This document shows, one piece after another, positions 47,360-61,122 of a stretch of DNA of 64,000 nucleotides (its first letter is position 1; the number at the start of each line of letters is the position of its first letter). The DNA lies in assembly GCA_963697895.1 (NCBI GenBank), contig OY969100.1:864001-928000 (forward strand), read 5' to 3'. The notes beneath the pieces were generated by a model that was given only the letters and a program-made list of their open reading frames with translations, did not search any database and was not told where the DNA came from. A program made the position numbers and the translations under genes. Origin of the DNA: an uncultured Methanomicrobiales archaeon. Lineage in GTDB: Archaea > Halobacteriota > Methanomicrobia > Methanomicrobiales > Methanospirillaceae.

Positions 47360-48589
47360 CTAGTCCTGCGATATTACTGGTTGCCCGTTTACCGGGGTTT
47401 CTCCCTTGTAAAGCCAGTTTCTGAAGAGGATAGGGGTGACGATGGTGGTAAGCAGGCTCATCAGGACAAGGGAGACGTACAGACCCTGGTCGATATACGC
47501 CTCGGTCAGGCCGATGAGTGCAACGATCATGGCCACCTCGCCCCGGGGTGACATCCCAAACCCGATGATAAGGGAATCCCTTCGAGCCCATCCCAGTAAT
47601 TTGGCCGGAATGCCGCATCCGATCACCTTGGTAAGGATCGCTACAACCGTGATCACCACGAGGAACAGGATGATCTCCGGGGTAAGGGTCCTGAAATCCG
47701 CAAGCACGCCGAGAGAGACGAAAAAGATCGCGGCAAATATGACCTGGAGATACTCCGCCCCCTCGCGGATATCCCTGCTGTGCACGAGACAGACCTCGCA
47801 GAACGAGACGCCCGCGATGAATGCACCGACGATTGCAGAGAGCCCGACGAGTTCGGCCATGAAAGCGTAGAAGAACGCGACCATCAAGGCGCTCATGAAG
47901 ACAAATTCAGGATATTTCTGTGCCAGGGGAGTTTTATCGATCTTAATGAGCACTTTGCTGATAACAAAATAACCGATCGCACCCCCGATCCCGATAAATG
48001 CGATCGCCTTGATCACCACCAGGGCGACCGACGCGATTGAAAGAACACCCGAGACGACGTCTCCCGTGATGGAGAGCGCGATCAGGCCGAGGACATCGTC
48101 GATCACGGCAGCACCGATGATCGCCTTGGCGGCTTCTGTCTGGAGCTTTCCCATCTCCTGGAGCACATTTGCAGTTATCGCGATACTGGTCGCAGTAAGA
48201 GCCGTCCCCACAAAAATGGCGCTTACGGTATTATAGCCGAAGAGGACCGAAACACCGTATCCCCCGATCCAGGGGACAATCACCCCGAGGAGGGCTATGA
48301 TCCCGTACCGAATATCGAGGAGATCCTTGGGATTGAATTCAAACCCGATCACGAAGAGGAGGATCACTGCACCGATGAGGGCCAGGCCCTGCACAAAATC
48401 GGTATACGTGATGAGTCCGAGTACGCTTGGTCCCACAATAATACCGACGAGGATCTCCCCGATCACCGCAGACTGATTGAGCCGTGATGCAATGAGATAT
48501 CCGGCAAGCGCAACGAAAAGGAGCAGGCTCATCTGGAAAACGATCGAAGCGGTCACTCCTTCCATGTCCAAAGAACAGGTACCGATCAT
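47360..48589 (-). CDS. CPA2 cation:proton antiporter (NapA/Kef-like)
   Basis: GEILVGII.GP, LLF.IG.E, LTATSIAIT, GAAVIDD, GAFIAG, PRGEVA. Confidence 0.92.
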   Translation of the reverse strand: MIGTCSLDMEGVTASIVFQMSLLLFVALAGYLIASRLNQSAVIGEILVGIIVGPSVLGLITYTDFVQGLALIGAVILLFVIGFEFNPKDLLDIRYGIIALLGVIVPWIGGYGVSVLFGYNTVSAIFVGTALTATSIAITANVLQEMGKLQTEAAKAIIGAAVIDDVLGLIALSITGDVVSGVLSIASVALVVIKAIAFIGIGGAIGYFVISKVLIKIDKTPLAQKYPEFVFMSALMVAFFYAFMAELVGLSAIVGAFIAGVSFCEVCLVHSRDIREGAEYLQVIFAAIFFVSLGVLADFRTLTPEIILFLVVITVVAILTKVIGCGIPAKLLGWARRDSLIIGFGMSPRGEVAMIVALIGLTEAYIDQGLYVSLVLMSLLTTIVTPILFRNWLYKGETPVNGQPVISQD

Positions 48590-48933
48590 ATAAAAACGTC
48601 GCGATTTTTAAGGGATTTGTCCTGGGTATGATCGGAAAATCACTGCCTGTTCATAAAGGCCATAATGATACCCGGCTCTCCGGTTATTTCAACCGTGCGC
48701 GCCAATATATCTTTGAAATTCGGTAAGAACCTATTTTTTTTGATTAAACAGGGAATTATCAAATTTAAACGTTTATTTTGTGGCCTTCGTTCTGCGTAGT
48801 TCTTTGGACCACACCTCGATTTTAAATCAGATTCTATCGACACGGGGGGCAAAACGGGCAGATTGAGCGCAATGTTTTTATTCTAAAAATAGCATAAGCT
48901 TTTTAACCCTATCCGGTGGGAGGTGTATTGCTT

Positions 48934-49017
48934 ATGGCAGAAAAGAAGAAGACCGCGGCAAAAAAGCCTGAAGCAAAGAAACCTGCGGCGAAGAAGCCGG
49001 CAGCGAAGAAGAAATAA
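48934..49017 (+). CDS. 27-aa Lys/Ala/Pro-rich histone-H1-like microprotein (MAEKKKTAAKKPEAKKPAAKKPAAKKK)
   Basis: TTTTAA box at about 48901, GGAGGTG RBS at 48919-48925, ATG 48934, TAA 49015-49017, downstream CCC-T-rich-GGGG element; the amino-acid repeat is encoded by synonymously varied codons. Confidence 0.8.
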   Translation: MAEKKKTAAKKPEAKKPAAKKPAAKKK

Positions 49018-49252
49018 AGCTGCAACAGCACCTATCCCTTTTTCTTCGGGGATCGTCCTGATCTCCGAATAATATCGTTTTCCCTCCATATCCTCTTCTC
49101 TGACCAATCCCATCCTTTACACAGGGTATTTCATTCCGGCCGAAAAACCTGTCATGCCAAAAATCGATGCCGTCAGGGAAAGCATCATTACCCATGAGGG
49201 ATGAAAAAATGGTCATCCGGGGTTTTAACGATCCCCAATTCGTGCTAAGAAC

Positions 49253-50395
49253 ATGACTGCCGGGAAAGATGACATACGAGGATCAGGACACGAATCGATT
49301 AATTCCGGGACTATTTCGTCGGAGAGAGCGAACATACCCCGTATGGTCTCCTGGAACGTGACTTCCCGCTGCCACCTCCGGTGCCCGCACTGCTACATCG
49401 CTGCCCGGAGTGATTGGCCATCCGATGAGCTCTCCGGAATTGAAGGGAGGAATCTCCTATACGAACTCGCCGGGGCGGGAACATCAGTAGTCATCCTCTC
49501 CGGCGGAGAGCCGCTCCTCCGGAAAGATATCTACAGCCTGATCGGATGGGGCACGGAACTGGGTCTCCATATGGCGATGGGCACATCCGGAACCCTGATC
49601 ACACAGGACGTCGCCGGACAACTGAAGGATGCGGGGATCGTCCGTATTGCGGTCAGCCTTGATTCCCACGAACCGAAAGCCCATGACCGGTTCCGGGGTC
49701 GGCCCGGCGCCTGGAAGCAGGCAGTGCAGGGCATTACGGCCGCACGAAAAGCGGGTATTCCCGTGCAGCTCAACATCTCCGTGACCCGGGAGAACTACAC
49801 GCATATCGACGACCTGATCTCTTTTGGCGAATCGCTCGGCATAGAAGATTTCCAGGTCTTCTTTGTGGTGCCGGTCGGGCGGGGAAAGATGGTGAAAGAT
49901 GTAAGTCCCCATCAATACGAGCACCTGATAAGAGAGATTCTGGAACGGGTTGCGGTTTCGGATCTTCGCATCCGACCGACCTGCGCCCCGCAGTTCATGC
50001 GCATTGCCCGACAGATGGGGATACGTGACCGGGGATGGGTGCGTGGGTGCATCGCGGGGATAAGCTACTGCAGGGTCGGCCCGGACGGAGAGGTCACCCC
50101 CTGCCCGTACCTTCCGGTCTCCGCCGGTAATGTTCGGAAAAATACTTTTAAGGAGATATGGTACCATTCACCGCTGTTGAACGATCTCCGGGATCCATCC
50201 CTGATCGAAGGGAAATGCGGAATCTGCGAGTACCTGGCAATCTGCGGCGGCTGCCGGGCACGGGCATACGGAATCAGTGCCCCGACTGCGGATCATTGTG
50301 GAAGCAGGGCTGTCGCAGGAGGAATGGACATTGCGAATGTCTTTGGTGAAGACCCATGGTGCCCGTACGAGCCGGAGGGAGAGATCGGTACATGA
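49253..50395 (+). CDS. ahbD: Radical SAM/SPASM protein, AhbD-like heme synthase
   Basis: WNVT.RCHLRCPHCY, SGGEPLLR, RPTCAPQFMR, RGC.AG, PCPYL, KCG.CEY...CGGCRARA, DP.C; in an operon with ahbAB. Confidence 0.75.
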   Translation: MTAGKDDIRGSGHESINSGTISSERANIPRMVSWNVTSRCHLRCPHCYIAARSDWPSDELSGIEGRNLLYELAGAGTSVVILSGGEPLLRKDIYSLIGWGTELGLHMAMGTSGTLITQDVAGQLKDAGIVRIAVSLDSHEPKAHDRFRGRPGAWKQAVQGITAARKAGIPVQLNISVTRENYTHIDDLISFGESLGIEDFQVFFVVPVGRGKMVKDVSPHQYEHLIREILERVAVSDLRIRPTCAPQFMRIARQMGIRDRGWVRGCIAGISYCRVGPDGEVTPCPYLPVSAGNVRKNTFKEIWYHSPLLNDLRDPSLIEGKCGICEYLAICGGCRARAYGISAPTADHCGSRAVAGGMDIANVFGEDPWCPYEPEGEIGT

Positions 50396-50892
50396 CCGAG
50401 CAGGCACAGATAGACGATATGGACCGGCCACTGCTTCAGCTCCTGCAGGATGATTTCCCGGTCACGGCATACCCATGGGATGAGATAGGAGAACGGTTGC
50501 ATATTCCCGCAGAAGAAGTGCTCGAACGAATTACCCGGCTCTCCCGGGATCATGCCCTCCGGAGCATCGGGCCCGTGATCGAGGCGAGTGCGATCGGGCT
50601 AACCGCATCCACTCTGATGGGGATAGAGGTTCCGGAAGAGCGGTTCTCCGAAGTCGCCCGGATCATAAATGCCTATGACGCTGTCTCCCATAACTACCGG
50701 AGAAATCACCGCATAAATCTCTGGTTCACCATTACCTGCCGGGATCGGGAAGAATTGAACCGGGTGCGGGAGGAGATCCTTGCACAATGCGATCTGAACG
50801 GAAGAGAGGTGCTGGATCTCCCGGTGAAGAAACGCTTCAAGATCGATGTCAGGTTTGCTCTCGTGAAGAAAGGAGACGCGGAAAATGGATGA
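50392..50892 (+). CDS. ahbA: Siroheme decarboxylase alpha subunit (Lrp/AsnC-like)
   Basis: D..LL..LQ.DFP....P...IG, IGP, VSHNY.R.H..NLWFT, LP..K.FKI.V.F. Confidence 0.88.
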   Translation: MTEQAQIDDMDRPLLQLLQDDFPVTAYPWDEIGERLHIPAEEVLERITRLSRDHALRSIGPVIEASAIGLTASTLMGIEVPEERFSEVARIINAYDAVSHNYRRNHRINLWFTITCRDREELNRVREEILAQCDLNGREVLDLPVKKRFKIDVRFALVKKGDAENG

Positions 50893-51373
50893 TACGGACC
50901 GGAGGGTCCTCATGGCAGTACAGGACGGCCTCCCCCTGGTAAAAGACCCGTTTGGTGCGGTCGGTTCTGTGTTGGATCTCGACCGGGACGAGGTGATCCG
51001 GAGGATACAGGCCCTCATCGGGAACGGTGTCGTGCGTCGTTTCGGCGCCCGCATCAACCACCGCCGGCTGGGTATCGTGGTCAATGCGATGGTCGGATGG
51101 AACGTGCCGGAAGACCGGGTAGAACGCATCGGGATGCAGATGGCCGGGTCCCCCGCGGTCACCCATTGTTACGAGCGGGAGGTCCGCCGGGGAGACTGGA
51201 ACTACAATCTGTTTACGGTTCACCACGGGTATAGCCGGGAGGAGGTCGAAGACCAGATCGCTTCCCTCGCAAGAGAGACGGGGATCGACGAGCACGTCGT
51301 TCTCTATAGTGTGGAAGAATGCAAACGATCTACCGCCGGCCGGTTGTATCCCAGCGGGAAGAGGAGACTATGA
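50885..51373 (+). CDS. ahbB: Siroheme decarboxylase beta subunit
   Basis: Q.GLPL...PF, G.VRRFGA..NH..LG...NAMV.W, VTHCYER....W.YNLFT.H. Confidence 0.9.
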   Translation: MDDTDRRVLMAVQDGLPLVKDPFGAVGSVLDLDRDEVIRRIQALIGNGVVRRFGARINHRRLGIVVNAMVGWNVPEDRVERIGMQMAGSPAVTHCYEREVRRGDWNYNLFTVHHGYSREEVEDQIASLARETGIDEHVVLYSVEECKRSTAGRLYPSGKRRL

Positions 51374-60915: not shown

Positions 60916-61122
60916 ATGGCTGATTTACCTATTGCTGCAGTTATTAGAATTGCAAAGAAGAGTGGTGCAGAAAGAGTCGGCAGCGACGCAGCTACTGCAC
61001 TGGTTGAGAAGACCGAAGATTATATCGCAAACCTGGTCAAGGAAGCGAACCGGCTCGCGATGCATGCGGGAAGGAAGACGATCAAGGAAGAGGATGTTGA
61101 ACTTGCGGTAAAATCCGCATAA
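60916..61122 (+). CDS. Archaeal histone (HMf family)
   Basis: MADLPIAAV.RI.K..GAERV..DA...L......A.HAGRKTIK.ED; GAGGTG RBS and TATATA box upstream. Confidence 0.96.
   Translation: MADLPIAAVIRIAKKSGAERVGSDAATALVEKTEDYIANLVKEANRLAMHAGRKTIKEEDVELAVKSA

Follow-up and report, generated by a model that had tools for sequence, protein, structure and literature searches.

An intergenic gap of 663 nt contains a microgene for a 27-residue peptide made up largely of lysine, alanine and proline. The gap is part of a 64,000-nt stretch of DNA from an uncultured Methanomicrobiales archaeon (assembly GCA_963697895.1, contig OY969100.1, positions 864,001 to 928,000 of the forward strand; the whole stretch is termed the window here). 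The microgene is very probably real and conserved, and, as far as a comparison of homologous sequences can tell, it is a stand-alone protein-coding gene that is under selection on the peptide. Its product may be a nucleic acid-binding small polycation, for which DNA is the most plausible target. This reading draws on analogy with known lysine-rich tails, and we give it a probability of about one half; we infer the expression of the gene, the binding to nucleic acid and the choice of DNA as the target. The gene and its predicted signals are laid out as follows.

48875–48882, plus strand: predicted TATA box, TTTTTATT, which aligns with the ACCAAAATATTTAT block of 23 homologous loci

48900–48909, plus strand: predicted transcription start region, TTTTTAACCC, with the start at about 48905–48906; it includes the conserved TAACC

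48904–48925, plus strand: conserved block of the 5′ untranslated region (5′ UTR), TAACCCTATCCGGTGGGAGGTG, with the pattern TAACCCTTTCCGGTRGGAGGTG

48919–48925, plus strand: Shine–Dalgarno sequence GGAGGTG, 8 nt before the ATG, assigned from sequence and conservation

48934–49017, plus strand: coding sequence of the 27-amino acid (aa) Lys/Ala/Pro microprotein, ATG start, stop codon included

49036–49047, plus strand: predicted archaeal terminator, the oligo-T tract CCCTTTTTCTTC, with T5 at 49039–49043

The peptide, MAEKKKTAAKKPEAKKPAAKKPAAKKK, is read from the ATG at 48934–48936 to the TAA at 49015–49017. Of its 27 residues, 12 are Lys, 8 Ala, 3 Pro and 2 Glu, and the computed values are about +10 for net charge, 2.9 kDa for mass and 10.5 for isoelectric point (pI). 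More exactly, the mass works out at close to 2,907 Da, or close to 2,775 Da once the initiator Met is cleaved off. An earlier note on this DNA had pointed to a 27-aa open reading frame (ORF) with 12 Lys behind a strong GGAGGTG Shine–Dalgarno sequence 8 nt before the ATG; both are present where the note had them, and the GGAGGTG is conserved as well. The note also held that the gene is absent from the ORF listing of the window. This is true of the form that starts at its own ATG, but a GTG-extended ORF of 33 aa (48916–49017) is listed, and it is the sole form in which the microgene appears there. The extension is not kept in relatives; many homologues have GTA instead, or a stop codon right before the ATG. 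The microgene is single-copy in the window's genome, and its peptide represents the sole strongly K/A/P-rich 20-residue stretch in all frames of that 2.09-Mb genome. Three antisense ORFs, of 40, 76 and 94 aa, lie across the microgene (48883–49216, minus strand). Their openness is due solely to the lack of stop codons in the reverse complement of Lys/Ala/Pro codons, and they could mislead a gene caller into picking one of them. Another ORF behind a GGAGGTG, with a spacer of 9 nt, is found outside the window (G000:C1 near 1034100, minus strand); it encodes 33 aa and becomes Lys/Glu-rich toward the C-terminus (MGLAKKVVGAK...EKKKEKK).

By chance alone the window ORF would be unremarkable, since the host genome has 418 GGAGGTG sites, 26 of which are ahead of ORFs of 20–49 aa. 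It is conservation that places the microgene beyond chance. A strict DNA pattern (GGAGG, 5–12 nt, ATG, 3–4 codons, then KKxAAKK) matches 85 of 401 Methanomicrobia genomes, and the reversed pattern, which served as the control, matches 0 of 401. The earlier note had named the lack of a conserved ORF and ribosome-binding site in relatives as a finding that would undo its claim; a search was made, and both turn out to be conserved in these 85 genomes. The matches are in genus g5 (74 of 105 genomes), g13 (5 of 11), g18 (2 of 13) and g21 (3 of 12), plus the window's own genus, and there is none in families f2, f4, f5 and f6 of the class sample. In a sample of the phylum restricted to genomes at least 90% complete, the pattern matches 16 of 401 genomes, all in the same two families; the other families of this phylum sample gave none. 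Among named public genomes, 44 of at least 119 loci are labelled Methanoregula, Methanoregulaceae or Methanomicrobiales, and the main genus is therefore evidently Methanoregula.

In a comparison of the 663-nt gap with 31 genomes, the 5′ UTR and the ORF were the sole parts to match a relative (query positions 312–428, 71% identity); at the matching loci, the same GGGAGGTG precedes ORFs of 27 and 31 aa. If as many as three mismatches are allowed, the pattern TAACCCTTTCCGGTRGGAGGTG finds microgene loci only, one or two per genome, in four of five relatives searched. Profile (HMM, hidden Markov model) searches of genomes gave matches in 11 of 201 and 67 of 401, some of which are Lys-rich ends of long proteins. 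It should be pointed out that the whole-genome profile search under-detects the microgene: of five genomes that had no profile match, four carry the microgene when the 5′ UTR pattern is used.

The homologous loci of the class comprise 58 distinct coding sequences for 42 distinct peptides of 24–31 aa, and all are intact. The ratio of non-synonymous to synonymous polymorphism (pN/pS) was determined with the 27 sequences that are exactly 81 nt long, the other 31 having been excluded to avoid gaps. It is 0.23 in the sense frame, and the remaining five frames give 0.98, 1.20, 1.52, 0.32 and 2.06; the value of 0.32 is from the antisense frame that has the same wobble column. The variable columns at codon positions 1, 2 and 3 are 12, 13 and 25 of 27, respectively. 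Between the window genome and genus g5, the values are 0.74–0.89 at synonymous sites, which is near saturation, and 0.17–0.20 at non-synonymous sites. The peptides of the window and of the other family (genus g21) also have N-terminal residues of the type M-A-[DE]-K-K-K-x-A-A-K-K-P-E in common, and thus the constraint exceeds what composition alone would give. At the DNA level, Tandem Repeats Finder shows a repeat in the window ORF with a period of 15, 4.4 copies and 74% matches. This low likeness of the units fits the earlier remark that they use different synonymous codons. The proposal of a stand-alone gene with selection on the peptide is upheld by the pN/pS of 0.23.

Two nearly invariant blocks are present upstream of the ORF in an alignment of 24 sequences (A4; the window and 23 homologous loci). 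One is the A/T-rich ACCAAAATATTTAT and the other is TAACCC(T/A)TCCGGT(G/A)GGAGGTG. In the window, some 27 nt separate the predicted TATA box from the conserved TAACCC block that lies downstream of it, the spacing between the TATA-like block and the TAACC block is equal in the window and its relatives, and alignment columns T52, A53, A54, C55 and C56 show no variation in any of the 24 sequences. Read from the spacing, the first block would be the B recognition element (BRE)/TATA, and TAACCC would be the transcription start region. The earlier note had assigned the TATA role to TTTTAA. The letters are indeed present (TTTTTAA, 48900–48906), but they are probably some 25 nt away from the true TATA box: the motif falls at the predicted transcription start, and the likelier TATA box is the one at 48875–48882. 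If the second block were instead the TATA box, the mRNA would be nearly leaderless and there would be no explanation for the invariant Shine–Dalgarno sequence. A looser search with GGAGG found the full GGAGGTG in every match across the 85 genomes, 5–10 nt before the ATG.

Downstream of the ORF, the T5 run of the window starts 21 nt past the stop codon. A run of at least five T residues is found within 60 nt past the stop in all 65 distinct homologous loci, with a median offset of 21 nt, and thus the pyrimidine-rich, terminator-like element of the earlier note can be seen as a conserved oligo-T tract. A scan of the locus for bacterial-type promoters and terminators, which is not designed for archaea, showed nothing relevant and no hairpin terminator. 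A hairpin in the 5′ UTR that would hide the Shine–Dalgarno sequence was also considered. Pairing is found in 95.8% of the cells, but there is no compensatory change and shuffled sequences score alike, and the hairpin, although it could form, is not supported. The predicted fold of the mRNA is likewise no better than that of shuffled sequences (z = −0.98).

These signals point to a microgene that would be independently transcribed, as a predicted monocistronic mRNA of about 140 nt, and efficiently translated. A proline at every fifth residue should keep the 27-residue peptide disordered, and the peptide would then act as a small polycation that binds nucleic acid with no sequence preference. 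The most plausible target would be the chromosomal DNA of this histone-bearing archaeon, where the peptide would neutralise phosphate charge and favour compaction, as the histone H1 tail and the KPAA tails of AlgP/PhaF do. A linker-histone role can reasonably be inferred by analogy, with binding to RNA or to polyphosphate as live rivals. To judge by sequence, the peptide appears to be a new, minimal, stand-alone variant of the H1-like Lys/Ala/Pro low-complexity binders.

The C-terminal domain of the eukaryotic linker histone H1 is similar to the window peptide in that it is Lys/Ala/Pro-rich, punctuated by prolines and highly positive, and the likeness in composition that the earlier note had seen is borne out by the residue counts and the pI. 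The peptide differs from H1 in having no winged-helix globular domain, a length of 27 aa as compared with about 100 for the tail, a gene of its own, and an archaeal host with tail-less HMf-type histones. When the standard features of linker histone H1/H5 are looked for, the Lys/Ala/Pro-rich basic tail is there and the winged-helix domain is not; the latter is impossible in a peptide of only 27 residues. Homology to the H1 tail cannot be shown for such a low-complexity sequence. The tail is thought to work by charge neutralisation of DNA (PMC9239181). The KPAA domains of AlgP and PhaF of Pseudomonas share with the window family the short tandem Lys/Pro/Ala units and the variable repeat number. 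These domains are predicted to be disordered, and peptides of the repeat show DNA binding in vitro; in AlgP, a helical N-terminal domain of 124 aa bears 25 KPAA units, each a perfect repeat of four residues (PMC9239181). The window peptide, in contrast, has about four five-residue xAKKP units and no further domain, and does not have the make-up of a KPAA protein.

The chlamydial Hc1/Hc2 proteins (PF07382, HC2) match in composition only; the model has 194 positions, as opposed to 27 residues in the peptide, and the peptide is not a member. Short motifs similar to KKAAAKK or KKPAAKK that bind polyanions (DNA, heparin) are found in the mycobacterial HupB/MDP1 and HBHA and in kinetoplast-associated proteins; the latter are reportedly the subject of one paper on the condensation of kinetoplast DNA. 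In those cases the motifs are appended to folded bacterial or eukaryotic proteins, whereas here the motif is the entire protein. The tiny ribosomal proteins Thx, bS22, bL37 and eL41 resemble the window peptide in small size (24–33 aa), high pI and strong translation signals. They are Arg-rich and fixed in length; the window family differs from them in having no sequence match to them, a patchy distribution and expandable repeats.

Database searches place the window peptide in no described family. Neither Pfam nor NCBIfam, with E values up to 10 admitted, yields a ribosomal family, and in Rfam there is nothing above threshold, the best score being that of the long non-coding RNA (lncRNA) model NPPA-AS1_1 (19.5 bits vs 45). 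Ten such peptides, the one from the window included, were looked up in a collection of 15 billion proteins and none of the ten is present. The ESM Atlas has an exact entry for the 31-aa peptide of genome G025, with no neighbours returned. In the literature covered, which leaves most subscription journals and supplements outside its scope, no stand-alone Lys/Ala/Pro microprotein is described, whether archaeal or bacterial.

In some Methanoregula genomes the microgene is present twice, the additional copy having the same 5′ UTR and being tandem-expanded to 92 and 112 aa.

L069:1531–1806 and L152:417–752, plus strand: expanded copies, with a Lys/Pro/Val/Ala unit of about 20 residues

Such an expansion suits a binder that is scalable in length and not a fixed structural slot. 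When compared with proteins of 50–161 aa, the 92-aa paralogue gave seven matches, all compositional only, to Lys-rich segments labelled HC2 by Pfam and fused to SWIB or topoisomerase I repeat domains; there was no match among proteins of 30–49 aa. Lys-rich starts are also seen on longer frames. In genome G004 the start of a 135-aa ORF (L004:1160–1567, minus strand) matched the window ORF at the DNA level (87% over 38 nt); this start is rich in Lys, Pro, Val and Ala, and the remainder is like that of an ordinary folded protein. Frames of 714–762 aa with a Lys-rich start recur in genus g5, and the window's genome has a weaker Lys-rich start on a 738-aa frame outside the window (G000:C1 near 2042330, minus strand).

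Two genes border the intergenic gap.

47360–48589, minus strand: Na+/H+ exchanger gene, divergent, upstream of the microgene

49253–50395, plus strand: radical SAM/SPASM gene, co-directional, 236 nt downstream of the microgene

After the radical SAM/SPASM gene come two NirD/L-like siroheme decarboxylase genes with overlapping ends, and the whole of this cluster (49253–51373, plus strand) is presumably part of an alternative haem pathway, AhbD with AhbA/B. The same divergent PAPS_reduct+PUA gene, 59% identical, is found upstream of the microgene, about 1.6–1.8 kb from it, in both the window genome and G004. It is part of a five-gene shared block, and differing genes are inserted between the block gene and the microgene. 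The context in genus g21 is different, the genes there being ZPR1-like and PurM-like. Next downstream of the microgene is a convergent gene both in G004, where it encodes a nitroreductase, and in G025, where it is ZPR1-like.

Several findings weigh against the reading of the peptide as a DNA-binding polycation. The likeness to H1-like proteins is compositional only. HC2 is the sole Pfam family that scores in a scan with E up to 10, and it does so at 13.5 bits (E = 0.08) with the window peptide and 13.8 bits with the G004 homologue, both well below the gathering threshold of 40; the H1 globular domain is not matched. Thus the H1-like identity of the earlier note, if taken as family membership, does not hold. 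NCBIfam gives only an alignment to the tail of valine-tRNA ligase (E = 3.8), and PDB sequences only one irrelevant match (E = 1.5). The microgene is patchy, being found in 5 of 45 genera of the class, which is unexpected for a core component of chromatin. The neighbouring genes in the window, G004 and G025 give no hint of function. A microprotein-like, Lys-rich N-terminus is present on a 529-aa ORF of G004 (L017:1–1587, minus strand), a protein we take to be HdrA-like and hence to have no role with DNA. In addition, AlgP, which among bacterial proteins is the nearest analogue, associates with polyphosphate granules besides DNA (PMC9239181). On the other side, the five histone-fold proteins of the window's genome, together with the finding of no MC1 homologue in it, count in support of the polycation reading. 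One of the five histone-fold genes is in the window itself, where the earlier note had placed an HMf histone.

60916–61122, plus strand: HMf-type histone-fold gene, counted among the genome's five PF00808 matches

Similar ORFs occur beyond the lineage. A prokaryote-wide scan with the same strict pattern, with one genome per species, gave at least 119 loci. Among those listed, 75 are from many bacterial phyla and from Woesearchaeota; the taxa include Verrucomicrobiota, Nitrospirota, Planctomycetota, Chloroflexota, Patescibacteria and Omnitrophota. These 75 listed look-alikes are stand-alone, Lys/Ala-rich and preceded by GGAGGTG; 66 are complete ORFs and nine run off the locus. The complete ORFs are short, 41 having up to 35 aa, 12 having 36–60 aa and 13 having 61–130 aa (53 are no longer than 60 aa), and 62 of the 66 have at least 35% Lys. 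The pattern imposes only M-x3-4-KKxAAKK, and therefore the rest of each look-alike ORF is a finding that is not built in. Cross-species pairs retain the peptide and differ in their DNA mainly at third codon positions: a pair from Nitrospirota has 0, 0 and 6 differences at codon positions 1, 2 and 3, and a pair from Verrucomicrobiota has 3, 0 and 11. The look-alikes may be homologous or convergent. No common theme emerges from their neighbours: a Pfam match was obtained for 16 of 106 flanking fragments, and only HTH_17 and Response_reg recur, two times each.

It is unlikely, though a case can be made, that the peptide is an RNA- or ribosome-associated tiny basic protein or an RNA chaperone, comparable to Thx, bS22, bL37 and eL41. 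Its size, its charge and its very strong translation signals are those of tiny ribosomal proteins, similar tiny Lys-rich ORFs are found in the small-genome lineages WWE3, Moranbacteria and Woesearchaeota, and electrostatics alone would give a polycation no choice between RNA and DNA. However, the searches for ribosomal families (E up to 10) and for PDB chains gave no match, just 5 of the 45 genera of the class carry the gene, and tandem expansion to 92–112 aa is unsuited to a fixed ribosomal site. The Lys/Ala/Pro composition also departs from the Arg-rich one typical of such proteins, and none of the 16 Pfam-identified fragments, among the 106 scanned that flank the bacterial look-alikes, is ribosomal. 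An expandable repeat and a patchy distribution are easier to reconcile with a non-specific binder of polyanions than with a fixed part of the ribosome, and they leave the choice among DNA, RNA and polyphosphate undecided. A further reading is that the peptide binds a different polyanion, for example polyphosphate granules or acidic lipids, or is an encoded polyamine-like counter-ion and not strictly a chromatin protein. That KKAAAKK-type repeats are linked with the heparin-binding adhesin HBHA, and that a Lys-rich tail is found on the presumed HdrA-like ORF with no DNA role, is in keeping with this possibility, as is the requirement of the AlgP KPAA domain for the even spacing of polyphosphate granules (PMC9239181). 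Neither the locus nor its neighbours have a link to polyphosphate or lipid metabolism, and we consider this explanation improbable.

With Lys codons at 12 of 27 positions and a co-directional radical SAM/SPASM gene 236 nt downstream in the window, the ORF can also be looked at as a regulatory leader or upstream ORF (uORF), for example one that senses lysyl-tRNA, with the peptide as a by-product. The convergent downstream genes of G004 (nitroreductase) and G025 (ZPR1-like), together with the oligo-T tract past the stop in 65 of 65 loci, argue against such a role. The downstream gene changes between genera, so that no co-directional operon is conserved, and conservation of the peptide extends from the Lys positions to those of Ala and Pro and to the KKPE motif; a leader is hardly credible on these grounds. 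It is scarcely more probable that there is no protein gene on the sense strand, the product being a small RNA or the antisense Phe/Ala/Gly-rich ORF at 48909–49031 (minus strand). The antisense frames do remain open, owing to base composition, and the one with the same wobble column also has a low pN/pS (0.32), but the lowest value is that of the sense frame (0.23). Every homologue has an ATG 5–10 nt past the invariant GGAGGTG, and the A/T-rich promoter blocks upstream and the oligo-T downstream are both oriented with the sense strand, whereas the antisense start differs, being GTG in the window and TTG in G004. The best Rfam score (19.5 bits vs 45) and the predicted RNA fold (z = −0.98 against shuffles) also do not favour an RNA product.

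The reading of the peptide as a DNA-binding polycation bears on archaeal chromatin. HMf-type archaeal histones are without tails, and we know of no linker histone in archaea; as a conserved and strongly signalled polycation in a histone-bearing methanogen, the microprotein thus offers a concrete candidate for the charge-neutralising partner that they lack. More broadly, and as a tentative proposal that we ourselves regard as rather unlikely, stand-alone poly-Lys/Ala microproteins of about 13–60 aa may form a large class across bacteria and archaea, one that is unannotated and probably polyphyletic. These would be minimal encoded counter-ions of nucleic acids, similar to protamines or to H1 tails, and in the histone-bearing Methanoregulaceae they could act in trans as the missing histone tail or linker.

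Such a class would lie in a blind spot. Gene callers miss low-complexity genes of fewer than 30 codons, as is evident also from the ten peptides with no entry in the 15-billion-protein collection, and proteomics based on trypsin would destroy peptides of this kind, a caveat that has been raised for AlgP (PMC9239181). If the look-alikes are also expressed, inventories of the components of chromatin and the ribosome have overlooked a widespread class of nucleic acid counter-ions. For the histone-bearing methanogen itself, a synthetic peptide would provide a cheap test of the idea that the microprotein is a charge-neutralising partner of its tail-less histones.

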